Positions 2,063-32,045 of a stretch of DNA of 64,000 bases are shown in pieces. The position numbers and the translations under genes were made by a program. The stretch comes from Clostridia bacterium (GTDB taxonomy: Bacteria > Bacillota > Clostridia > Oscillospirales > CAG-272). Position 1 is the first letter of the stretch. Each line of letters opens with the position of its first letter. Where the stretch lies: positions 2,962 through 66,961 of the forward strand of contig JAFTMJ010000075.1 in assembly GCA_017452475.1 (NCBI GenBank), read 5' to 3'. Below the pieces are notes generated by a model. That model saw only the letters and a list, made by a program, of their open reading frames with translations. It made no database searches and was not told where the DNA came from.

Positions 2063-2328
2063 GGGAAGGCTCCTAACGGAGCTATTTTTGCCCGACCTTT
2101 TCCTTGCAAGCAGAGAACGGTCTTGGTCAAAAATGCGAACCCAATCCAAAATGCAATGCATTTTGAAGATGGGTCGATTCGTTGTTTTTAGCACCCGCAA
2201 CTTTATGGGAAGGCTCCTAACGGAGCTATTTTTGCCCGACCTTTTCCTTGCAAGCAGAGAACGGTCTTGGTCAAAAATGCGAACCCAATCCAAAATGTAA
2301 CGCATTTTGGAGATGGGTCGATTCGTTG
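2063..2328. repeat. Tandem direct repeat: two 122-bp copies (2063-2184 and 2207-2328) with a 144-bp period
   Basis: I see only 3 mismatches between the copies when aligning by eye. Each copy contains a GCTCC-TAAC-GGAGC hairpin and an AAAATGC-AAT-GCATTTT hairpin. Confidence 0.9.
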
Positions 2329-2336
2329 CAGGAACT

Positions 2337-2373: not shown

Positions 2374-2448
2374 TGGCACCCGCAACGGGAATCGAACCCA
2401 TAACTAACCCTTAGGAGGGGTTTATTATATCCATTTAACTATGCAGGC
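2374..2448 (-). tRNA. tRNA-Arg (anticodon CCT)
   Basis: Hand-folded 75-nt cloverleaf: acceptor GCCTGCA/TGCGGGT, D-arm GTTA-AATGGATA-TAAT, anticodon arm AACCC-CTCCTAA-GGGTT, T-arm ATGGG-TTCGATT-CCCGT, with an encoded CCA. Confidence 0.9.
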
Positions 2449-3315: not shown

Positions 3316-3344
3316 TTGACAATAGGCATTAAATGTGATAAACT
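3316..3344 (+). promoter_or_regulatory. Sigma-A type promoter of the three-gene module
   Basis: TTGACA (3316-3321), 17-nt spacer, TAAACT (3339-3344). Confidence 0.6.
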
Positions 3345-3372
3345 AAAGTATATTAAGTCGAAAGGGTACACT

Positions 3373-4128
3373 ATGTTCAAGGTTAAGATAGCGGGCTTCG
3401 TGATAGAGGTCGACAACAAGTATGGCTATATTGAAAGGCTATGCTCAAAATATAAATACCAAGGTAACGGGGCGGATTTTTGCGCCACCTGCACTGAGGA
3501 AGAAATTGATAATGAATATATAGCTGCCCAAAGCGACGAGGAGATTAAAAATCTGCTCCTTTCAATGAACACTGAACAACAGCGGGGCTATTTAGAGGGT
3601 GTTTGTATATATAGGTCAATTTGTCTACAGCTCCCGGAGCGCGGCTCCTTCGTTATGCACGCCGCAACCATCGAGGTTGACGGGCAGGCATATGCTTTTA
3701 CAGCCCGTAGCGGCACAGGAAAAAGTACCCATATTGCCTTGTGGAAGCAATATCTTGGGGACAGGGTTCAAATTGTAAATGGGGACAAGCCAATTGTCCG
3801 TGAAATAGACGGTGTTTTCTATGCCTACGGCACACCTTGGTGCGGTAAAGAGGGGTGGAACCGTGATGTTTGCGTGCCTCTTAAGGGTCTTTGCTTTGTA
3901 GAACGAGCAAAGGAAAATAGCATCAGCAAGCTCCCGTTAGATGAGGCGGCAAGCCGTATAATGAAGCAAATTTTAATTCCCAAGGACGCAATGGGTGCAA
4001 TTAACACCTTTGACCTTGTGGATAGAATGTTAAATAAGGTAAATTGCTGGCTTTTGGGCTGTAATATTTCAGTTGAAGCAGCCGAAATAGCGTATAAGGC
4101 AATGAGTGGAGGAAAAAATGAAGATTAA
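3373..4128 (+). CDS. HprK/PEPCK-fold-like P-loop protein with an unassigned roughly 100-aa N-terminal domain
   Basis: ATG at 3373 follows AAAGGG. The upstream part of track ORF 3148 overlaps radC and the promoter. The P-loop FTARSGTGKSTH is followed by IVNGDKPIV and GTPWCGKEG, which resembles HPr-kinase-related kinases found next to PqqD proteins. Confidence 0.6.
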   Translation: MFKVKIAGFVIEVDNKYGYIERLCSKYKYQGNGADFCATCTEEEIDNEYIAAQSDEEIKNLLLSMNTEQQRGYLEGVCIYRSICLQLPERGSFVMHAATIEVDGQAYAFTARSGTGKSTHIALWKQYLGDRVQIVNGDKPIVREIDGVFYAYGTPWCGKEGWNRDVCVPLKGLCFVERAKENSISKLPLDEAASRIMKQILIPKDAMGAINTFDLVDRMLNKVNCWLLGCNISVEAAEIAYKAMSGGKNED

Positions 4129-4384
4129 GAACGGATTTATATTAAGAGATGTTGGCGGTAAGACCTTCGTAGTTGCCGTTGGCGAGAGAAGCCGCGAGTT
4201 TAAGGGTATGATAACCTTGAATGAAACAGGCAAGCTTATTTGGCAAACCCTTGAAAAGGGCGCAACCGTTGAAGAGGTTGTTAACGCAATCCTTGCCGAG
4301 TATGAGTGCGATGACAAGGCGCTGGTTGAAAGCGATGTAAACGCCTTTATTGCTAAGCTTGAGGGAGATGGCATCCTTGAATAA
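4118..4384 (+). CDS. PqqD-family protein (RiPP recognition element-like)
   Basis: 88 aa from ATG 4118, with GGAGG at 4108-4112. MKIKNGFILRDVGGKTFVVAVG...LNETGKLIWQTLEKGATVEEVVNAILAEYECDDKALVESDVNAFIAKLEGDGILE is the typical PqqD pattern. It overlaps the upstream gene by 11 nt. Confidence 0.8.
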   Translation: MKIKNGFILRDVGGKTFVVAVGERSREFKGMITLNETGKLIWQTLEKGATVEEVVNAILAEYECDDKALVESDVNAFIAKLEGDGILE

Positions 4385-4841
4385 TTCAGGTGTTAGCTTA
4401 AAGGAATTTTGGCCAATAATGAAGGAGGTTATCGAAAGTGGCGGGGAGTTTACCTTCAAGCCCAACGGTATTAGTATGATGCCTCTTATTAGGCAGGGCG
4501 TGGATGAGGTTGTCCTCGTTTCTCCAAGCAACATTAAGCTTGGGGACGCGGTTTTTTACCAAAGAGATAACGGTCAGTTCGTTCTGCACCGCATTGTGAA
4601 AATCAAAAACGGTGAGTATGTTATGTGCGGGGACAATCAGTTTGATTTGGAATACGGCATAACCGACAAGCATATTTTGGCAAAAATGAAGTGTGTCATT
4701 CGTGACGGTCAGGTAATTGATGAGTCGAACAAAAAATACCGCAAGTATGTTAAAGGCTTACCTATGCGCCGCTTCAAGAAGCGCACACATAATTTCCTTG
4801 GCAGAGTAAAAAGAAAAATATTTAAAAAGAAGGCAAAATGA
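4368..4841 (+). CDS. S24/S26-family peptidase, SipW/ER-type Ser-His dyad, with no membrane anchor
   Basis: Ser motif NGISMMPLI and His motif FVLHRIV. There is no hydrophobic segment, and the C-terminal tail is very basic (KKYRKYVKGLPMRRFKKRTHNFLGRVKRKIFKKKAK). The start is uncertain: ATG 4368 or TTG 4350. Confidence 0.7.
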   Translation: MASLNNSGVSLKEFWPIMKEVIESGGEFTFKPNGISMMPLIRQGVDEVVLVSPSNIKLGDAVFYQRDNGQFVLHRIVKIKNGEYVMCGDNQFDLEYGITDKHILAKMKCVIRDGQVIDESNKKYRKYVKGLPMRRFKKRTHNFLGRVKRKIFKKKAK

Positions 4842-4857
4842 TTTTTGCCTTCTTTTT
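4824..4857. terminator. Bidirectional terminator between the S24 peptidase gene and rlmA
   Basis: AAAAAGAAGGCAAAA-TGA-TTTTTGCCTTCTTTTT. Confidence 0.8.
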
Positions 4858-4861
4858 AAAT

Positions 4862-8257: not shown

Positions 8258-10129
8258 ATGAAAAAGCTTTTTGCACTGTTATTAGCAATGATTTGCGCTT
8301 TGATGATTGTTTCCTGTGGTGATGAGGAGGGTACAGCTCCTTCAACTCCATCATCTGCAGCTACCACATCAAGCGATACAGGTACCCCTCCAAAGCCTGA
8401 TCAACCGCTTGGTCCAAGCGATACATATCAGCCGCCTGCTGACTATGATAAGCCAACCGTACAAGAGGTTTTGGGTGAGCTTATGAATGTGTTCACTGCA
8501 GAGGACACCTTCGGTAACGAAAGCAAGGTTCAGTCCTTTACCGATTATACCGATATTGATGTTTCCAAGGTAACAAACACACAGGTTGTTATCAGCCAAG
8601 GCGGTGTTTACAGGGTTCACGGCAAAAACGCCAACTGTCAGCTCTACCTAAAGGCGCAGGAGAAGGGCACACAGAAGGTTTACCTGCTTTTAGACGGGCT
8701 TGACCTTTCATACAGTGGCTCCAGCCCTGTTATCTTTGCAGATGACTTTAAAGAGGTTCACATTGTTTTGGCAAAGGGCTCATACAATACCCTCCGGGAT
8801 AGCGCAACAAACGGTGAAAACGGTGCTATCAAGGTTAAATCCTGCAATTTGGTTTTAGACGGCACAGGCAAGCTCACCATTACCGCAAACGCAAAGCACG
8901 GCATTTCCAACACCAAGGAGCTTACTATTAATGGCGGTAATTACAACATTACCTCCGTTGGTCACGGTATATACGGTAAGCAGGGTGTTATCATTAACGG
9001 CGGTAAGTACAATATCAGCTCTGCAAAGAGTGGCATTAAAGCGGGTGATGATGAGGTTGGCAACGAATATGTTGGCAAAATCGAAATTAACTCAGGCAGC
9101 ATAAAAATCCGTAGCACAACAAACGGTATTAACAGCTACGGTACAGTTTCTATCATCAACGGCAGAATTACAGTTGAATCTAACGGCAAGGGTATTGTTG
9201 CCACAAATGACCTTAACATAAGCGGCGGCACACTTATCCTTAGCACCGTTGAGGATACAATTAAGAGTGATGCTTCGGTTAACATTACAGGCAAGGCAAA
9301 TATTAAGATTACCACAAACGGTAACGGAGTTGAGGCAGTAAATGCAACCGTTTCCACAACGGGCGTTATCTACATCAAAACAATGCCTGTATTTACAAAG
9401 GATGTTACGGGCTCCTACATTTATGTAAACGGCGCATATGTTCATATTGAGGACACAGATGATGACTCAGGCGAAAGATATGCGGTTGCCGAGTGCAAGG
9501 GCTTTGAAATTAAGGAAAAGCTCACATTAAACAAGGCAACTATCGGTGTTGACTCCTTTGAGGACGGTCTTAATGCCGCAACCGTTGATGCTCAAAGCGG
9601 CAAATTGGTTATCAGCACAACCAGGGACGGTGTGGACGCTTCTAACGAGGTTGTAATCGGCGGCACAGTCAATGTGAACATTGTTGACTCCAATAAGGGC
9701 ATAAAGGCTGCTACAAAGGTTACATTGAGCGCAGGCGAAACAACCGTAACTGCAGATACAGATGCTATCAAGGCAGACACAGTTTCTATCGTTTCAGGTA
9801 AGCATATATTGTTTGAAAAGGTTGAGTATGTAACTGACTTTACAATAAGAGGCGGCGTGCTTCTTTGCGTATCTACAACAAACAATCCCGTTTCAATTAA
9901 AGCAACTATCCCTAATGCATCAGGCGTGATTGTAAATAAGGATATGTGCAAAAACGGTCAGCTTTTAACCCTCGCTATGGGTACTGAAACCGTTGGTGTT
10001 GTTTTAACAAAGGACTTTACTGAAAAGATGTCCGTTTTATATGCGGCGCCCTCACAGGGACAGTGTCTTGTAATCATCGGTCAGGATGAAAAGAGGGAAA
10101 CCCTTGTACAAGGCTCCTTCTACGGTTAA
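8258..10129 (+). CDS. Lipoprotein with a parallel beta-helix carbohydrate-binding domain (Cthe_2159-like)
   Basis: Signal peptide with lipobox MIVSC, a Pro/Ser/Thr linker, then repeated turns (INGGNYNITS, INGGKYNISS, INSGSIKIRS, ISGGTLILST). Confidence 0.7.
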   Translation: MKKLFALLLAMICALMIVSCGDEEGTAPSTPSSAATTSSDTGTPPKPDQPLGPSDTYQPPADYDKPTVQEVLGELMNVFTAEDTFGNESKVQSFTDYTDIDVSKVTNTQVVISQGGVYRVHGKNANCQLYLKAQEKGTQKVYLLLDGLDLSYSGSSPVIFADDFKEVHIVLAKGSYNTLRDSATNGENGAIKVKSCNLVLDGTGKLTITANAKHGISNTKELTINGGNYNITSVGHGIYGKQGVIINGGKYNISSAKSGIKAGDDEVGNEYVGKIEINSGSIKIRSTTNGINSYGTVSIINGRITVESNGKGIVATNDLNISGGTLILSTVEDTIKSDASVNITGKANIKITTNGNGVEAVNATVSTTGVIYIKTMPVFTKDVTGSYIYVNGAYVHIEDTDDDSGERYAVAECKGFEIKEKLTLNKATIGVDSFEDGLNAATVDAQSGKLVISTTRDGVDASNEVVIGGTVNVNIVDSNKGIKAATKVTLSAGETTVTADTDAIKADTVSIVSGKHILFEKVEYVTDFTIRGGVLLCVSTTNNPVSIKATIPNASGVIVNKDMCKNGQLLTLAMGTETVGVVLTKDFTEKMSVLYAAPSQGQCLVIIGQDEKRETLVQGSFYG

Positions 10130-10168
10130 TAAAAGAATAGCCTCCCCAAGCTTGGGGAGGCTAAAATT

Positions 10169-11551
10169 TTATTTGCTTTCAGCATTTAACGGAGAAGAGT
10201 AATTTGCTTCACACTTGTCAATAACAGCAAGGATGATGGCATAAATAAAGGTAGGATAAATATTAAAGAAGTGGTTGTCAAGCATGCTTGTCAGCAGAAG
10301 AGAAGCGATGCAAAGCGCAGAGAACAACGTAAATATACTGCGTTTTTTCCACATCAATACAACCGTTTGAAACCTATGGAACAAATAAGCTAAAAGACCT
10401 ACAATTCCGCAGGTGCCAAGGAGCTGAACAAATGTGTTGTGATATCTGTCGGGCATAAAGATTGCAAACTCATACTCCTGCGCCTTGGCAGAAGAGAAGC
10501 CGCCGCCAAAAACAGGGTGGTTAAGGAAGTTTTCAATGCCTCGCCTGTAAATATCAAATCTGCCGTTGTCGTCAAATCCACGGGATAAGTAGTCGCCCAA
10601 AATGTTAGAAATCTTGCTCCAAAGAACAATAATTCCAATAATTCCAACCGCAATAATTCCCACGGTAATTATGCGGTTGATTTTTTTGTTGCAGCCTGCA
10701 AAGCAGCACACAATAGCGCATACACCGATTATTAATGTGGAAATTAACAGAGAGGAACGGCTTAGGGAAAGAACAATTGCTAAATATGACACAAGCCCGC
10801 TTCCGTAAAACAGGAATCCAAACCTTTTTGCCGTGCAAGCAAAATAGAAGTGGGAAGGTAATAAAAAGGCAAGCAATCCGCCCATATTGTTCCACATTCC
10901 CCAACCAAACATTACGCTTTCCTTTACAATTTCACCGTTTACAAGCTCTATTTGATAAATAAATGAAAGAAAAAACTGAAGGGTAGCCATTATAGAAATT
11001 AAATAAAGGACAAAGAAAAGGTATTTCTTTGTGTCCCCTGCGTCGGGCAACCCAGTTCTGAAAAGAAAGAATATGACGCCTGTGGAGATTATCATAACTA
11101 ATGCAAAGGCAATGTTACCAAAAGTATATTCGTCAAAATTAAAAAAACCGTTTAGCAAATATGCACCGCAAAGGGCAACAAAGCCCCAAAAAAGCTTTGA
11201 TTTGTAAAAGCCCTTAAAGTCACTGCTTTTTTTGTGAATAACAAAGTGAAGCACCATAATGGTAACAAGATAAACCGCAAAAATTACTATTGCAACAATA
11301 TACGGAGTCTTGTAAAATATTCCGCTTTTCACGCTTTTTTGGGAAAACATCAAAATAAATGTAATAATGGGCGTGATAAAGAAGCGTAAATCCTCACACA
11401 GTATAAAGCCAAAGGCAACCGTAATTCCATATACGGCGATGCCGAAGGGTTCAATAGAGAAGGTGTGGGTAATTAGTGCGGTAGCAACTATTAAAATTGG
11501 GTAGTAATAGCTGTTTAAAAAATCCTTTGTCTTGTGTAAAAATCTTTCCAT
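10169..11551 (-). CDS. O-antigen ligase / polymerase (Wzy_C) family membrane protein
   Basis: 460 aa with at least 10 hydrophobic helices, and a central motif LAIVLSLSRSSLLISTLI followed by a large loop. Confidence 0.65.
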   Translation of the reverse strand: MERFLHKTKDFLNSYYYPILIVATALITHTFSIEPFGIAVYGITVAFGFILCEDLRFFITPIITFILMFSQKSVKSGIFYKTPYIVAIVIFAVYLVTIMVLHFVIHKKSSDFKGFYKSKLFWGFVALCGAYLLNGFFNFDEYTFGNIAFALVMIISTGVIFFLFRTGLPDAGDTKKYLFFVLYLISIMATLQFFLSFIYQIELVNGEIVKESVMFGWGMWNNMGGLLAFLLPSHFYFACTAKRFGFLFYGSGLVSYLAIVLSLSRSSLLISTLIIGVCAIVCCFAGCNKKINRIITVGIIAVGIIGIIVLWSKISNILGDYLSRGFDDNGRFDIYRRGIENFLNHPVFGGGFSSAKAQEYEFAIFMPDRYHNTFVQLLGTCGIVGLLAYLFHRFQTVVLMWKKRSIFTLFSALCIASLLLTSMLDNHFFNIYPTFIYAIILAVIDKCEANYSSPLNAESK

Positions 11552-11628
11552 AATCCTCCTGCATTATTAATAAAGAATAAAAAATAGGAATTCGGAATAA
11601 AGAAATCCGAATTCCTACATTAGTAAGA

Positions 11629-12468
11629 TTATTTTTTGTTTTTCTTTTTGGAGCTCTTTTCGTTACTTGTGTCAGTCTTGTCCTCTTCGCCGTAGCCGTA
11701 GCCGCCGTACTGACCGTAGCCGTAATAGTGACCGTACTTGCTGTACTTGCCGTACCTGCCGTACTTACCGCCGTAACCGTACTTCTTGTATCTACCGTAA
11801 TACTTCTTGTAGTAGTTATTGTAGTAAGAGCCGTTTCTCATAGGAATACGGTTAAGGATAGCACCAAGCACCCTACAGTTACTCTTTTCAAGCTGGAGCT
11901 TAACATCCTGTGCAAATCTGTAGCTGATTTCGTTTGCGGTGATAACTAAAATAGCACCGTCAACAAAAGCAGAAATAGCAGAAGCATCAATAACCGCGCC
12001 AAGAGGGGCAGCGTCGACAATTACATAGTCATACTTTTCTCTTGCGTCAGCAAGCAAAGCCTGGAACTTAGCGGAGCCGAGAAGCTCAACAGGGTTTGGT
12101 GGAACCGCGCCCGCAAAAATCATATGAAGATTTTCATTTTGAGTAGCGTAAAAAATATCATCCAAGGTTGCTTGACCGGACAAATATTCGCTAAGACCTA
12201 AAATTTCATTTGCGTTTTGTGTATACTTTGTTGCAAAAACGGACTTGCGAAGGTCGGCGTCAACAAGCAAAACCTTCTTTTCCGAAATAGCCAAGGACTT
12301 GGAAAGCTCCAAGGAAATAGTACTCTTACCTTCGTTCTTAACGCAGCTTGTGATAAGAACTGTCTTAATGTCATCACCGCAGAAAAGGAAGTTGGTACGT
12401 AAAGCCTTGAAAGCCTCGCGAACTGAGTAGTTTAACTTTTTAGTTTCATTTAATACTGTAGATTTCAT
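11629..12468 (-). CDS. CpsD/CapB-family tyrosine autokinase (BY-kinase) with a hyper-extended Tyr/Gly tail
   Basis: Walker A (SCVKNEGKST), Walker A' (LLVDADLR) and Walker B (VIVDAAP). The C-terminus has 19 Tyr in 47 residues. Confidence 0.85.
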   Translation of the reverse strand: MKSTVLNETKKLNYSVREAFKALRTNFLFCGDDIKTVLITSCVKNEGKSTISLELSKSLAISEKKVLLVDADLRKSVFATKYTQNANEILGLSEYLSGQATLDDIFYATQNENLHMIFAGAVPPNPVELLGSAKFQALLADAREKYDYVIVDAAPLGAVIDASAISAFVDGAILVITANEISYRFAQDVKLQLEKSNCRVLGAILNRIPMRNGSYYNNYYKKYYGRYKKYGYGGKYGRYGKYSKYGHYYGYGQYGGYGYGEEDKTDTSNEKSSKKKNKK

Positions 12469-12478
12469 CGTTTACACC

Positions 12479-13306
12479 TCATGCTTCGTCAATTTCAGGA
12501 ATAGCACCCAAAACGCTTAATCCAAGCTGCTTTTCAATATCATCCGGTGTCTTTACCTTATCATCAAAGATGAAAATAATAATCAATATAGCACAAACCA
12601 AAACAGCACCGATAGCGCCGAAGATAATAGCGTTTCTTGTTGCATTCGCATTGGAAGGCTCGCGTGGAACTGTACCGGAGGTGGAGATGCTTGTTCTGAT
12701 TGTGTCAACCTGCATAAACTCGTTAATGTGTGCGTGGAACAAGCACATCACAGCATTTGAAATAGCAGCGGAAAGCTTTGCATTTTCAGTGGTAGCAGTA
12801 ACGGAAACGATACAGGTTTCATCATCTGATGTTACCTCAATGTGGTTGCGGATGTAGCTGCCTGTAATGCCCTCAGAGCCAAAATGCTGGCTAAAGTAAG
12901 CAGAGAAGGATGAGCCTACATTCATAATTTTGTCATCGCAAAGCGCCTTTGTTAGCGCAATGTCAGCATCGGTTTCGGGTGTTGCGCCATTGTGCTTGTT
13001 TAATGCCTCTGCAACCTTATCGCAATAGTCACCCATAATAAGCTCACTACTTGTTTTGGTGAGCTGCTTACCGATGGACCAGTCCTCGGCCTCGGTAGTT
13101 GTACTCGAAGAGGTATTTATAATAAATATCTCGGTTGTGGATGTGTACTCCTCAGTAACAAAGAAGCTTGTCCACAAAAATGCGATTATAGCAAAACAGA
13201 GAACAACAAGTGCGATAATCCAAAGCTTGCTTAAAAGAAAGTTTGCTATATCTCTGATATCAAGTTCAGTGTTTTTCTTAGCAGGTGCGGTGTTGTTAGA
13301 ATCCAT
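12479..13306 (-). CDS. Wzz/CpsC-type chain-length determinant (BY-kinase transmembrane modulator)
   Basis: N-terminal TM (LWIIALVVLCFAIIAFLW), C-terminal TM (IIFGAIGAVLVCAILIIIFIF), and the C-terminal juxtamembrane DDKVKTPDDIE. It sits immediately upstream of the kinase gene. Confidence 0.75.
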   Translation of the reverse strand: MDSNNTAPAKKNTELDIRDIANFLLSKLWIIALVVLCFAIIAFLWTSFFVTEEYTSTTEIFIINTSSSTTTEAEDWSIGKQLTKTSSELIMGDYCDKVAEALNKHNGATPETDADIALTKALCDDKIMNVGSSFSAYFSQHFGSEGITGSYIRNHIEVTSDDETCIVSVTATTENAKLSAAISNAVMCLFHAHINEFMQVDTIRTSISTSGTVPREPSNANATRNAIIFGAIGAVLVCAILIIIFIFDDKVKTPDDIEKQLGLSVLGAIPEIDEA

Positions 13307-13316
13307 TTTATACTCC

Positions 13317-14063
13317 TTAGAATTTTTTTTCGTTCAAAAGAATTGATAGGGGCTTTCTGCAAAAAACATCGTTTGCGTATTCTTGACCGTATTTTTTGGA
13401 AATAACCTCATAGGCATTTGATAGCCGTGGCGGCAGGCTTGAATCATTGTGCGCATCGGTAGCAACAATATCAACAAGCTTCTTTTTAAAGCAGCTCTTT
13501 AAAAAGCTTGCTATTCTGCCAAGCTTGAATCTTGTAACGGAACGGGCGTTAACCTGTAGCATAGCACCGCTTTCGCGCAAGCTTTCAGCCAAGGAGGGGT
13601 CCTTGATAAAGGCTGAATAGCGTTCAATGTGCGCAATAACAGGGCGGATACCCTTTCGCAAAAGCTTGATAATTGTGTTTTCAATTTCAAAGCCTGTGCA
13701 ATCCGGTGGAAATTCAATCAAAGCGTATGAGCTGTTTCCTAAAAAGTGGCATCTATTGTTGAAAAGAGAATCGCTGATATCGGCATGATACATTATCTCA
13801 TTTCCCAAATAGAGCTTAAGGTCGGGATATTTTTCATTTACATAATCACAGGCAACCTTAAACCTTCTGTCAAGCCTGCCCATATGAAAATGCATTTGCT
13901 CCTCATCCTCGAACTCAAATATTTTAAAGTGCGGTGTAAAGCATATATGCCGTATTCCGTCAGAATAGGCAATATCAATCATTTTTTTCATAGCATCCTC
14001 ATCCTGCGCGCCGTCATCAACACGGAAAAGCAGGTGGCAATGCAAATCAACAAAATCGACCAA
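13317..14063 (-). CDS. CpsB/CapC-type PHP-family protein-tyrosine phosphatase
   Basis: VDLHCHLLFRVDDGA at the N-terminus, plus TPH and ATDAH metal-binding motifs. Confidence 0.8.
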   Translation of the reverse strand: MVDFVDLHCHLLFRVDDGAQDEDAMKKMIDIAYSDGIRHICFTPHFKIFEFEDEEQMHFHMGRLDRRFKVACDYVNEKYPDLKLYLGNEIMYHADISDSLFNNRCHFLGNSSYALIEFPPDCTGFEIENTIIKLLRKGIRPVIAHIERYSAFIKDPSLAESLRESGAMLQVNARSVTRFKLGRIASFLKSCFKKKLVDIVATDAHNDSSLPPRLSNAYEVISKKYGQEYANDVFCRKPLSILLNEKKF

Positions 14064-14209: not shown

Positions 14210-15859
14210 ATGAGAATTGTTTTATGCGCCATAAACAGTAAGTTTGTTCACTCAACCCTTGCCGTTTGGTATCTAAAGGCGGCAGCAGAGCAGGTGGGGT
14301 GCGAGTGTGCTGTTGTGGAAGGAACAATAAATGAAAGAGCAGATGAAATATACAACCGTATTGCTGCGTGCAATCCAACCCTTGTGGCGTTTTCAACATA
14401 CATATGGAATAAGGATAATGTTTTGCAAATTGCAAAAAGAGCTAAAGAGAGCTTGAATGCAGAGGTCCTGTTGGGCGGACCTGAGGTTAGCTATAATCAA
14501 GGAGAGCTTTTCGAAAAATACGGGTTTATAGATTACATTATTTCCGGCGAGGGAGAAGAGCCGTTTGCAAAGCTTTGCAGTGGCATCGACATAGAAAGCA
14601 TTGAAGGTGTTTCCTATAAAAAATGCGGGGGAGTGTTTATAAAACCGCCAAATATCAATAAAAATCTGCCGCCGAATCCCTATTCGAAGGAGTACTTGGA
14701 TGGACTGAATGGCAGGATAGCATACCTTGAAACAAGCAGGGGCTGCCCCTTTAGCTGCTCCTTTTGTCTGTCAGGCAGATGCGGCGGGGTGCGGTTCTTC
14801 AACTTAGAGCAATCAAAGAAAAATATCATTACCTTGGCGAACAGTGGCACACAAACGGTAAAGCTGGTGGACAGAACCTTTAATGCAAATAAGAAAAGGG
14901 CAAGGGAGCTTTTTAAGTTCATTATTGACCAATACGGAGTAAATATTCCAAAAGGCGTATGCTTCCATTTTGAAATTGAGGGCGAGCTTCTTGATGATGA
15001 AACGATAGAGGTATTAAGTAATGCGCCAAAGGGCTTGATACAATTTGAAATAGGCTTGCAAAGCTTTAATTCAAAAACTCTTGAGGCAATTAACAGAAAA
15101 ACAAATATGGAGCTTTTGACGGAAAACATTAAAAAGATAATTGCACTTGGCAATATCCATACTCACATTGATTTAATTGTAGGCTTGCCGTATGAAAATA
15201 TGAATAGCTTCAAGACAAGCTTTGAAAAAGCCATTGCCCTAAAACCGCATATGCTGCAAATCGGCTTTTTGAAGCTTCTTCACGGGGCAAAAATCAGGGA
15301 GGAGAGCGATACCTATAAAACTGTGTTTATCGACACTCCCCCATATGAAATAGTGTCAAATAACTGCATTTCACAAAAAGAAATGGACGAGCTGCATGCT
15401 TTTGAGGATGCATTTGAAAAAATGTACAATTCCCGTCGCTTTGCTCTAACCTGCTCTTATCTTTTCGGCTGCTTTGATAGCAGCTTTAGTATGTTCTTCG
15501 ACTTTGCCAAGTATTTACTTGAAAATCCTACGCCTAATACTCTTGATGATTTTACAAGGCAGATTTTTGAGTATTTTGGTAGGAAGGAGAGCGTTGACAA
15601 GAATTCATTAAGAGATGCCTTAGCCATAGACAGGCTTGCAACAAACCGTATGGGAGCTTTGCCCGAATTTTTGAAGGTTCGCTCTTTACATTTAAAAAAG
15701 GCGCTTAACATGCTTGAGGAAAACGAAAGCACAAAAAAGCCTAAAAATGTTAAAAGAGCCGCCACGGTTTTGTTAACAAAAAATTTACTTGCCTATGTGG
15801 ATTATGTGGAAAGTGATTATATAACTAACAGGTTTTTGGTAAAATTCACTAAACTTTGA
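14210..15859 (+). CDS. B12-binding-domain radical SAM protein with a DUF4080-like C-terminus
   Basis: N-terminal B12-like domain (RIVLCAINSKFVHSTLA) and radical SAM motif ETSRGCPFSCSFC. Confidence 0.75.
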   Translation: MRIVLCAINSKFVHSTLAVWYLKAAAEQVGCECAVVEGTINERADEIYNRIAACNPTLVAFSTYIWNKDNVLQIAKRAKESLNAEVLLGGPEVSYNQGELFEKYGFIDYIISGEGEEPFAKLCSGIDIESIEGVSYKKCGGVFIKPPNINKNLPPNPYSKEYLDGLNGRIAYLETSRGCPFSCSFCLSGRCGGVRFFNLEQSKKNIITLANSGTQTVKLVDRTFNANKKRARELFKFIIDQYGVNIPKGVCFHFEIEGELLDDETIEVLSNAPKGLIQFEIGLQSFNSKTLEAINRKTNMELLTENIKKIIALGNIHTHIDLIVGLPYENMNSFKTSFEKAIALKPHMLQIGFLKLLHGAKIREESDTYKTVFIDTPPYEIVSNNCISQKEMDELHAFEDAFEKMYNSRRFALTCSYLFGCFDSSFSMFFDFAKYLLENPTPNTLDDFTRQIFEYFGRKESVDKNSLRDALAIDRLATNRMGALPEFLKVRSLHLKKALNMLEENESTKKPKNVKRAATVLLTKNLLAYVDYVESDYITNRFLVKFTKL

Positions 15860-31322: not shown

Positions 31323-32045
31323 ATGTTAGAGTTAAAAAATGTTTCCTTCAAGGTCACCACTGAGGACGGCGGTGAAAAGGAAATTTTAAAGAATGTAAGC
31401 CTTAAAATTGAAGATAGATTTGTGGCAATCACAGGACCTAACGGCGGCGGTAAATCCACTCTTGCAAAAATAATTGCGGGCATTTACCCTGTAACAAGCG
31501 GTCAAATATTCTTAGACGGTGAGGATATAACAAGCAAGTCAATAACAGAAAGGGCAAAAATGGGCATCAGCTTTGCCTTTCAGCAGCCCGTTCGCTTTAA
31601 GGGCTTGACCGTGCGTGACCTAATCACATTAGCGGCAGGAAAGAGAATAAGCGTAACAGAGGCTTGCACATACCTTTCCGAGGTTAGTCTTTGCGCAAGA
31701 GATTATATTGACAGGGAGATTAACGCTTCCTTGTCAGGCGGTGAGCTCAAGAGAATTGAGATTGCAATGATAATGGCGCGAGGTACCAAGCTTTCGGTAT
31801 TTGATGAGCCTGAGGCAGGTATTGACCTTTGGTCTTTTAATAATCTAATTAGGGTGTTTGAAAAGATGCACGAAAAAATCAACGGCAACATCATTATTAT
31901 TTCTCACCAGGAAAGGATACTTGATATTGCTGACAAGATTATCGTTGTTTCAAACGGCGAGGTAACAAATTACGGTAAGAAGGAAGAAATTTTGCCATCC
32001 CTTCTCCGTGGAGACTATTCAAAATTCGGCTGTGTAAAGCTATAA
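31323..32045 (+). CDS. SufC-like ABC ATPase
   Basis: Walker A GPNGGGKST, signature LSGGELKR, Walker B LSVFDEPEAG. Paired with a SufB/D-like gene. Confidence 0.75.
   Translation: MLELKNVSFKVTTEDGGEKEILKNVSLKIEDRFVAITGPNGGGKSTLAKIIAGIYPVTSGQIFLDGEDITSKSITERAKMGISFAFQQPVRFKGLTVRDLITLAAGKRISVTEACTYLSEVSLCARDYIDREINASLSGGELKRIEIAMIMARGTKLSVFDEPEAGIDLWSFNNLIRVFEKMHEKINGNIIIISHQERILDIADKIIVVSNGEVTNYGKKEEILPSLLRGDYSKFGCVKL

Follow-up and report, generated by a model that had tools for sequence, protein, structure and literature searches.

In a 64,000-nucleotide stretch of DNA from a Clostridia bacterium of the CAG-272 lineage (GenBank assembly GCA_017452475.1, contig JAFTMJ010000075.1, positions 2,962 to 66,961), called here the window and numbered from its first letter, three overlapping and translationally coupled genes lie on the + strand within positions 3373-4841 and form what will be referred to as the trio. 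Gene 1 (3373..4128, +) encodes a 251-residue protein of the Pfam ScmC family, with a P-loop and the fold of HPr kinase/phosphorylase (HprK/P) and phosphoenolpyruvate carboxykinase (PEPCK). Gene 2 (4118..4384, +) encodes a discrete, 88-residue recognition element (RRE) of the PqqD type (PF05402), as used for peptides that are made on ribosomes and modified after translation (RiPPs), and gene 3 (4368..4841, +) a soluble, 157-residue serine peptidase resembling signal peptidase I (SpI) and SipW. Gene 1 is a remote homologue of LppK and gene 3 a homologue of LppS, two enzymes that act in the biosynthesis of the recently defined linear polyphosphorylated peptides (LPPs), and it is this relationship, with its implications for the function of the trio, that is examined here.

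Organization of the Locus

Genes 1 and 2 overlap by 11 nt (4118-4128) and genes 2 and 3 by 17 nt (4368-4384). A consensus scan places a sigma-70-type promoter on the + strand at 3316..3344, consisting of TTGACA, a 17-nt spacer and TAAACT, with a TG dinucleotide 5′ of the -10 hexamer. The scan alone operates at chance level (11 promoter-like sites in the region against 9.0 ± 2.6 in shuffled sequences), and in an alignment of the window with three other species the -35 element and the extended -10 element are invariant, with variation in the remainder of the spacer. At the other end, a bidirectional intrinsic terminator (4820..4861, both strands) overlaps the stop codon of gene 3 and also ends the convergent RlmA-like gene; its hairpin has a 19-pair stem on both strands, a folding energy of -25.1 kcal/mol and z = -7.7 against shuffles. 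The original prediction, made from the letters of this DNA alone, had described this promoter and terminator, overlaps of 11 and about 17 nt, and the motifs ARSGTGKSTH (residues 111-120), IVNGDKPIV (134-142) and GTPWCGKEG (153-161) in gene 1 and GISMMP (34-39) and LHRIV (73-77) in gene 3. The promoter coordinates were exact, the overlaps agree with the open reading frame (ORF) coordinates and every motif was recovered at its place; a single implied coordinate, the start of gene 1, was off by one base, the ATG being at 3373.

Compared with species at 50-83% protein identity, the trio genes show nonsynonymous divergence (dN) of 0.12-0.45 with saturated synonymous sites, and the ratio of nonsynonymous to synonymous divergence (dN/dS) is at most 0.17 wherever it is computable. 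These are real genes under purifying selection. The guanine-plus-cytosine (GC) content of the trio, 0.44, lies within one standard deviation of that of the window (0.42 ± 0.027) and hence presents no compositional anomaly, and a horizontal transfer of the trio was rejected for want of such an anomaly. The maximal hydropathy over 19 residues does not exceed 1.0 in any of the three proteins (0.96 in gene 3), and therefore none of them carries a membrane anchor.

The Three Proteins of the Trio

The best curated model for gene 1 is TIGR04249 (ScmC; E=2e-8), but its score of 34 bits stays far below the cut-off of 125, so that the protein does not count as an equivalog of that family. Weak matches over the P-loop are obtained with the HprK-related kinase A and B models and with PEPCK, and the local copy of Pfam returns a weak P-loop match and nothing else. 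The model PF27840 (ScmC) is absent from that copy, and the assignment to it comes from the precomputed annotation of P0001, which is 99% identical to gene 1, and of syntenic homologues. No match to Hpr_kinase_C (PF07475) or TIGR00679 was found at E<=1, nor did a profile of gene 1 match any PDB sequence at E<=10. The AlphaFold2 model of the protein (pLDDT 93) has HprK/P and ATP-dependent PEPCK as its top Foldseek matches in the PDB, with a probability of 1.00, E of about 3e-6 and modest TM-scores of 0.3-0.55; the likeness to HPr kinase/phosphorylase is one of fold only.

The family to which gene 1 belongs is large, with 5373 homologues at E<=1e-3 (90% identity clusters) and 7854 clusters among 50% identity representatives, 718 of them below 1e-30. 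Sixty homologues share H96, followed within the P-loop or Walker A motif (residues 111-120; 3703..3732, +) by S113, G114, G116, K117, T119 and H120, and further on by N136-G137-D138-K139-P140 and G153-x-P155-W156-x-G158-K159-E160, all invariant. Natural fusions of members of this family (proteins P0320, P0392, P0348, P0342 and P0400) join it to NTP_transf_5, to an S24-type peptidase of the gene 3 kind with no RRE in between, to a radical SAM enzyme or to a Y_phosphatase3 tyrosine-phosphatase domain, which ties these parts to one pathway involving phosphate chemistry.

Gene 2 matches PF05402 (PqqD) with E=2.5e-16 and 60.2 bits, far above the gathering cut-off of 23.4. It falls below the cut-offs of the equivalog models for PqqD of pyrroloquinoline quinone (PQQ) biosynthesis (27.1 vs 46 bits), for lasso B1 proteins (39.1 vs 70) and for ScmD (18 vs 100). 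Among PDB sequences its matches are TbiB1 (E=7e-6), PbaB1 (3e-4) and LppB (9x8z_B; 9e-3). In a manual reading of this last, weak alignment, N35, Y62, D73 and F77 of gene 2 correspond to N33, Y60, D70 and F74 of LppB, the residues that hold the Tyr and Pro of the leader peptide (PMC13381572).

Gene 3 matches TIGR02228, the model for archaeal-type signal peptidase I, with E=9e-8 and 32.1 bits against a cut-off of 51.85, and it also lies just under the cut-off of Pfam Peptidase_S24. Its AlphaFold2 model (pLDDT 86) combines a beta core with two helices, one N-terminal (residues 11-23) and one long and C-terminal (122-152), and the Foldseek matches, LexA, lambda cI, UmuD, SipA and SpsB, are those of the S24/S26 fold. 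Gene 3 has 607 homologues, and across 40 homologues the residues G34-x-S36-M37-x-P39, L73-H74-R75, G88-D89-N90-Q91 and E95 are invariant. The predicted nucleophile is Ser36 (codon 4473-4475) in the GISMMP box (4467..4484, +), and the predicted general base His74 (codon 4587-4589) in the LHRIV box (residues 73-77; 4584..4598, +). The basic C-terminal tail (residues 122-157; 4731..4838, +) has 18 Lys or Arg and no Asp or Glu among its 36 residues, and its basic character is kept across the homologues, including those from clusters that contain a precursor gene. As it has no transmembrane anchor, the protein is predicted to be cytoplasmic.

In the public annotation gene 3 (P0121, 140 residues) begins at Met18, which leaves out positions 4368-4421 of the window. 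The annotated start is probably too short, and the ATG at 4368 is the likelier one, because residues 9-17 are conserved in the homologues and lie within a confidently predicted helix; the 17 residues that precede Met18 include E13 and I17, which align with residues by which LppS contacts its RRE.

Taken as family assignments, the calls of the original prediction are borne out for all three proteins. Gene 1 has the fold of an HprK/PEPCK-like P-loop protein with TIGR04249 as its best model, gene 2 is an RRE of the PqqD type, and gene 3 combines the S24/S26 fold with the invariant Ser and His boxes of a SipW-type peptidase, without an anchor and with a tail of 36 residues rich in Lys and Arg.

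Relationship to the Biosynthesis of Linear Polyphosphorylated Peptides

LPPs were defined by Popov et al. (Nat Commun 2026; PMC13381572) in Bacilli, where the operon follows the order lppA-K-B-S-D-N, for instance in Paenibacillus alginolyticus. At the core of the clusters an HprK-like kinase is joined by a discrete RRE, a peptidase of the SpI type, an exporter resembling MsbA, and NTP_transf_5; the precursors are of 35-200 residues with the leader motif YxxPxVLxHQxIxFETxxS (PMC13381572). In Bacillus subtilis, LppK puts one to four phosphates on Ser3 of the core; LppS, which acts poorly on the unphosphorylated precursor, frees the core, and its cleavage requires LppB in vitro (PMC13381572). The LppS mutants S29A, H68A and D93A are inactive, the N-terminal helix of the enzyme (E6, I10) packs onto the sheet formed by LppB and the leader, and the leader residues F-3, E-2 and T-1 matter for cleavage (PMC13381572). 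The clusters are described as patchy, horizontally mobile and, like those of paeninodin, conflict-like in Bacilli, where LPP clusters are also associated with surface-polysaccharide genes (PMC13381572). The original prediction held that neither the function nor the type of substrate of such genes had been characterized, a statement now outdated by the biochemical characterization of the homologous lppK-lppB-lppS module in that same work.

Several comparisons connect the trio to this module, the identities to the LPP counterparts being 22-31%. BLASTP aligns gene 3 with LppS at 27% identity (E=1e-15), and profile-profile alignment of the two families with hhalign gives a probability of 98.7% (E=3e-16). 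S36, H74 and E95 of gene 3 align with S29, H68 and D93 of LppS, and its N-terminal segment KEFWPIM with KEFVQIM, whereby E13 and I17 correspond to E6 and I10. As a stand-in for LppK we used the LppK-position protein of a Bacilli-type K-B-S-N locus (L089), found in a metagenome with a single LppS query. The gene 1 profile matches this protein with an hhalign probability of 96% (E=3e-9, 22% identity) in an alignment that runs from H96 through the P-loop to the C-terminal domain, and TIGR04249 scores the two alike (32.6 bits for the stand-in, 34 bits for gene 1). A search of plasmids with LppS gave no match.

The published domain table for LPP clusters, with TIGR02228 in 126 of 126 loci and TIGR04249 in 67 of 126, together with PqqD, NTP_transf_5 and TIGR02203 (PMC13381572), lists the very models that score best for the three proteins of the trio and for the additional genes of its relatives. 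Supplementary Data 1 of the same paper also holds Clostridial SpI-RRE pairs, as small similarity clusters in which the RRE is entered under "others" and the remaining columns as "not determined" (PMC13381572). Cluster #4 covers Dehalobacter, Desulfosporosinus and Anaerocolumna, and cluster #9 an uncultured Ruminococcus (PMC13381572); gene 3 and gene 2 of the window are each 34% identical to their counterparts in the Ruminococcus pair.

Conservation and Neighborhood of the Trio

A scan of one genome per species yielded at least 589 encoded relatives of gene 1. The best 80 of these all belong to Clostridia, mostly as metagenome-assembled genomes with Oscillospiraceae, Acutalibacteraceae, Lachnospiraceae or Eubacteriales labels. 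Where enough downstream DNA was available (75 loci), the order gene 1-gene 2-gene 3 is kept in 62; genes 1 and 3 without a separate gene 2 are found in five (in one, L064, gene 2 is fused to gene 1), genes 1 and 2 only in four, and gene 1 alone in another four. Most related loci have an overlap of 8 nt at the junction of genes 2 and 3, and dozens of species, with divergence down to 43% identity, still have the trio. The trio is therefore syntenic across relatives, as the original prediction had proposed should be checked, but not obligate, given these loci with only one or two of its members.

The context of the trio is stable, free of mobile-element genes and of compositional anomalies. Close relatives have in common with the window RadC upstream of the trio and RlmA-like and RumA-like methyltransferases downstream of it, and the trios of other clades have quite different housekeeping flanks. 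A surface-polysaccharide set (a Cthe_2159 lipoprotein, Wzy_C, a CpsD-like P-loop kinase, Wzz and CpsB) lies at 8258-14063, 3.4 kb 3′ of the trio, and in some relatives a GT2 glycosyltransferase gene lies just 5′ of it. The association with polysaccharide loci is recurrent, and we report it as an observation and do not use it as evidence, because it reflects few independent events.

Three unrelated protein families are encoded in sister clades directly 5′ of gene 1 and in its orientation; they account for 14, 8 and 21 of 81 loci, together about half of them (for example L014 9668-9958, L033 9638-9997 and L030 9205-9864). The first (c11) is a small lipoprotein that has a linker rich in Ser, Thr and acidic residues and, at its C-terminus, the motif ..EGENxNxELGxG[YW]TxP.., in which [Y/W]xxP is present in 7 of 11 members; the second (c22) is a small lipoprotein ending in an invariant-like GGxDPYVEDxF; the third is a 219-residue protein with two transmembrane helices. 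For both lipoprotein families the gap to gene 1 is often only 1-6 nt. These proteins are possible substrates or partners of the trio. The window and its closest relatives lack all three families and have in this position a divergent RadC gene, or GT2 and RadC, so the idea is a lead and not a finding. A likeness between the N-terminal linker of the Cthe_2159 lipoprotein of the window and the C-terminal motif of the sister-clade lipoproteins was considered and rejected, because comparison by hidden Markov model (HMM) and BLASTP shows similarity of the signal peptides only.

Two further features lie beyond RadC. At 2063-2329 (+) the window contains two tandem copies (144-bp period, 97% match) of an element of about 110 nt, located between an isochorismatase-like gene and the tRNA-Arg/RadC pair. 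At least 14 related species have it in one to three copies, nearly always in the same orientation, and RNAalifold predicts from 18 copies three hairpins with 31 pairs, 15 of which show compensatory double changes; the G-U pairs point to + as the strand of the RNA. Comparison with Rfam gave no match at gathering score and no credible one at E<=1, which leaves the element as a candidate for an unannotated structured small RNA or repeat. The tRNA-Arg gene itself (anticodon CCT) lies at 2374-2448 (-), between this element and RadC.

Fuller Clusters in Relatives

The original prediction regarded the trio as an orphan, which does not hold invariably, since some relatives have an adjoining MsbA-like exporter, NTP_transf_5, a radical SAM enzyme and a precursor. 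In eight loci of Acutalibacteraceae/Ruminococcaceae type the trio is followed directly by an ABC exporter gene (best model MsbA), and in two of the eight an NTP_transf_5 gene lies about 8 kb away. More elaborate clusters are found in three Lachnospiraceae loci (L039 10001-17291; L049 9925-16180; L062 6527-13059; see also L085 and L087), which contain in order a gene 1 homologue, the RRE, in some cases NTP_transf_5, a gene 3 homologue, a small ORF, a radical SAM/SPASM enzyme, an MsbA-like ABC exporter, NTP_transf_5 and a conserved 320-residue protein without a Pfam match. These hybrid clusters usually lie inside a capsule-type locus. Gene 3 and gene 2 of the window align end to end with their counterparts in L062 at 29% and 40% identity, respectively, the basic C-terminal helix of gene 3 included.

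The small ORF of the Lachnospiraceae clusters encodes a near-invariant leader of 22 residues, MKYEKAKAEVVLFDNSDV[VI]T[TAS]S, and beyond it a tail that is hypervariable and frequently includes Cys; in L062 and L049 their own precursor reads MKYEKAKAEVVLFDNSDVVT... These are the features of a classic precursor. Only 36 clusters of this family are found in a collection of 5.8 billion proteins. Two further loci, found by way of the precursor, have an RRE-peptidase-precursor-radical SAM-exporter core with a ScmC gene a few kb upstream. A different arrangement, N-D-B-radical SAM-K-S, is seen in L092, where the gene 1 relative, belonging to another type of cluster, gives a weak match to TIGR00679 (E=5e-4).

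Search for the Missing Parts

None of the additional components of these clusters could be located near the trio of the window. No ORF with the YxxPxVLxHQxIxFETxxS leader was found in the 64-kb window or in the related loci by six-frame regular expression and HMM searches, and a generic [Y/W]xxP leader expression returned nothing credible in the window. A model (HMM) built from the leader of the Lachnospiraceae precursors, run over all six frames of the window and 84 loci, matched only its three source loci. Clustering of 1252 small intergenic ORFs recovered only translated tRNA and other RNA elements and an acyl carrier protein, and no conserved small intergenic ORF emerged from loci that have the trio without a radical SAM gene. 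The 64-kb window likewise holds no homologue of the MsbA-like exporter, NTP_transf_5 or SPASM radical SAM enzymes: its sole ABC match is a 240-residue ATPase at 31323, and the radical SAM gene nearest to the trio, 9.4 kb away at 14210-15859, is of the B12-binding/DUF4080 type. The statement of the original prediction that no precursor, radical SAM enzyme or exporter lies nearby thus extends, with respect to SPASM-type radical SAM enzymes, to the entire window.

The strong constraint on the trio means that it must have a substrate. Most simply, the precursor would be encoded elsewhere in the genome, as had been suggested from the sequence, and this fits both the lack of a precursor in 64 kb and a precedent, as Supplementary Data 1 of the LPP study records precursors and RREs that are sometimes located elsewhere in the genome (PMC13381572).

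Proposed Function and Alternative Explanations

We propose, with a probability of roughly 0.6, that in the trio the lppK-lppB-lppS core of LPP biosynthesis is present in a divergent, Clostridial form. The earlier idea of an RRE-guided kinase and protease is supported, and for the proteins of the window we infer the two activities, and the mechanism outlined here, from remote homology and conserved residues. Gene 2 would bind a peptide or small protein made on the ribosome, by way of a recognition motif in its leader, and this motif is probably of the Tyr-x-x-Pro type, because N35, Y62, D73 and F77 align with the LppB residues of the Tyr and Pro pocket. Gene 1 would then use ATP, held at its P-loop (K117, with H96 and D138), to phosphorylate a serine near the start of the core, adding one or more phosphates. 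Gene 3 would dock by its N-terminal helix (E13, I17) on the sheet formed by RRE and leader and then remove the leader by means of Ser36, His74 and Glu95. By elimination, the precursor and any exporter or NTP transferase would be encoded outside the 64-kb window.

A number of observations weigh against this proposal. LppB (E=9e-3) is a weaker match to gene 2 than lasso B1 proteins are (E=7e-6), and the RREs beside Clostridial SpI genes were classed as "others", not as LPP RREs, in PMC13381572. Judged by their scores, genes 1 and 3, and gene 2 likewise, would remain outside the specific NCBIfam families, below whose cut-offs they fall. The window has neither exporter nor NTP_transf_5, and no precursor of the LPP, Lachnospiraceae or [Y/W]xxP kind is present there or in trio loci without a radical SAM gene. 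LPP clusters are described as patchy and mobile, whereas the trio sits in a stable housekeeping neighborhood (RadC, RlmA, RumA) of host-like GC content. Finally, some relatives keep gene 1 alone, and gene 1 may therefore not depend strictly on an RRE.

Part of the same evidence can be read differently. The trio could mature a membrane-anchored small protein and not a classical secreted RiPP, with the clade of the window using an equivalent encoded elsewhere, an alternative that we consider unlikely. It would account for the three unrelated families that occupy the lppA position at 14, 8 and 21 of the 81 loci, for the gaps of often 1-6 nt between the lipoprotein genes and gene 1, for the [Y/W]xxP in the C-terminus of 7 of 11 members of the first lipoprotein family and for the GGxDPYVEDxF ending of the second. 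It would also suit the vertical, housekeeping-like neighborhood, and the basic amphipathic C-terminal helix of gene 3 could hold this protein at the membrane. The upstream proteins, however, bear Sec or lipoprotein signal peptides whereas a cytoplasmic location is predicted for the trio enzymes; the conserved motif of the upstream proteins lies at the C-terminus, unlike the known leaders of LPPs and lasso peptides; and none of their genes is found in the window or its closest relatives. Adjacency alone does not prove a substrate relation. A related conjecture, likewise unlikely in our view, is that the bare trio of hundreds of gut and rumen Clostridia species constitutes a vertically inherited housekeeping pathway that phosphorylates and cleaves a cell-envelope protein and yields no secreted natural product; candidate substrates would be the lipoproteins in the lppA position or the two-helix protein, and such a pathway might be linked to the surface-polysaccharide loci. 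That the trio should instead be a functionless, decaying leftover of an LPP-like or radical SAM RiPP cluster that was once complete is very improbable. The precursor, exporter and NTP transferase are indeed all missing from the window, and partial versions (gene 1 alone, with gene 2 or with gene 3) do occur, but selection data largely refute this idea, with dS saturated, dN of 0.12-0.45 and dN/dS not above 0.17. Catalytic and motif residues are all invariant, the promoter and the coupled gene overlaps are conserved, the trio is kept in dozens of species down to 43% identity, and the 7854 gene 1 clusters (50% identity) stand against 36 clusters of the sole known Clostridial precursor family.

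Even less credence can be given to a chance juxtaposition of an HPr kinase/phosphorylase, a PqqD of PQQ biosynthesis and a secretory signal peptidase I or LexA-like regulator, which the fold matches to HprK/P and to LexA and signal peptidases, and the housekeeping neighbors, might bring to mind. Gene 1 matches neither Hpr_kinase_C nor TIGR00679; no PqqA, PqqB, PqqC or PqqE is encoded nearby, the neighbors being RadC, RlmA-like, RumA-like and polysaccharide genes; gene 3 has no DNA-binding domain, has His where LexA has Lys and, because it lacks a membrane anchor, cannot reach the outer face of the membrane. A single pathway is favored by the strict coupling of the genes and by the fusions. A module for anti-phage defence or conflict, to which we attach the lowest probability, could be suspected since LPP and paeninodin clusters have been described as patchy and conflict-like in Bacilli (PMC13381572). 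PADLOC gave no credible match, only a single one of 13.9 bits to the basic tail, and the stable chromosomal context, with neither mobile-element genes nor a compositional anomaly, does not favor such a role.

Returning to the proposed LPP-type core, literature searches on ScmC and SynChlorMet and on the combination of PqqD, HPr kinase and S24, together with two genome-mining papers on RREs, revealed nothing on the trio. The Clostridial branch appears only in the supplement of PMC13381572, whose authors saw it and did not study it. What is new here is a minimal kinase-RRE-peptidase core that is widespread and stably inherited with no linked precursor, exporter or transferase, and that relatives enlarge to a hybrid by adding a radical SAM enzyme together with a new family of leaders.

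Implications

Biosynthesis of LPPs was defined in 2026, for Bacilli only, and the trio points to a distant and far larger branch among the Clostridia of gut and rumen, which has at least about 590 matches in species-representative genomes and 7854 kinase-family clusters at 50% identity. The Clostridial branch usually keeps the core without precursor, exporter and transferase, in a stable position and under strong purifying selection, which makes the trios natural minimal systems for asking what the core does alone. The precursor family of the Lachnospiraceae, with its conserved 22-residue leader and its link to a radical SAM enzyme, provides a testable substrate for a Clostridial RRE and peptidase, and the small lipoproteins in the lppA position are candidates for non-classical substrates. 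If the substrate were indeed a cell-envelope protein of a housekeeping pathway, RiPP machinery would have been re-used for protein maturation. More generally, finding the substrate would show whether recognition and leader processing of the RiPP type serve a core function in abundant gut anaerobes.

Comparison with Known Systems

The enzymes to which the single proteins are most easily compared act in other settings. Gene 1 shares with HprK/P and ATP-dependent PEPCK the P-loop fold, and these are its top Foldseek matches, but it is not a member of either family at the sequence level, lacks the N-terminal domain of HprK, is about half the size of PEPCK and occurs in another context. Gene 3 has in common with SipW and the archaeal and ER-type signal peptidases I (S26B) the fold, the GxSMxP and xHR boxes and the GDN box. 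It differs from them in that it is anchorless, predicted to be cytoplasmic and under the TIGR02228 cut-off, and in having an N-terminal docking helix, a basic C-terminal helix and a gene coupled to that of an RRE.

Among multi-gene systems, the SynChlorMet cassette (TIGR04248-TIGR04251: ScmC, ScmD, ScmE, ScmF), for which we found no published function in the literature, resembles the trio in that ScmC is the best model of gene 1, a PqqD-like partner adjoins and some relatives of the trio add a radical SAM/SPASM enzyme weakly similar to ScmE. The trio, however, falls far under the equivalog cut-offs (34 vs 125 bits for ScmC, 18 vs 100 for ScmD), and the window has no radical SAM gene of that type. 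In the tailoring of the lasso peptides paeninodin and pseudomycoidin (PadeK/PsmK and the nucleotidyltransferase PsmN), a kinase of the HprK family and a PqqD-type RRE likewise act on a ribosomal peptide, and in systems of this type phosphorylation of a serine can precede glycosylation. In contrast to these systems, the trio has no lasso cyclase and no B2 cysteine protease, and neither was found among the window neighbors or the annotated recurrent flanking clusters of the 81 loci (a part of the clusters being annotated). Leader removal would be carried out in the trio by a serine peptidase of signal-peptidase fold, and the phosphorylated site of the lasso peptides is a C-terminal serine, not one near the N-terminus of the core.

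The closest comparison is with the LPP clusters themselves. The window differs from these in having no lppA-type precursor, no lppD and no lppN, and its RRE is of the MKIKxGFxLR.. type filed as "RRE others". The third catalytic residue is Glu in gene 3 and Asp in LppS, gene 3 bears a strongly basic C-terminal helix, and a radical SAM/SPASM enzyme accompanies some relatives of the trio but is not part of the published LPP core. Stable inheritance within a housekeeping neighborhood of gut Clostridia also contrasts with the patchy spread of LPP clusters. Common to both is an HprK-like kinase, a discrete RRE and an SpI/SipW-like peptidase, encoded in the same order in the trio of the window. Gene 3 keeps the catalytic positions of LppS together with the helix residues that contact the RRE, and gene 2, as far as a weak alignment tells, the Tyr-pocket residues of LppB. 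Relatives of the trio add the same MsbA-like exporter and NTP_transf_5, and both systems are found near genes for cell-surface polysaccharides.

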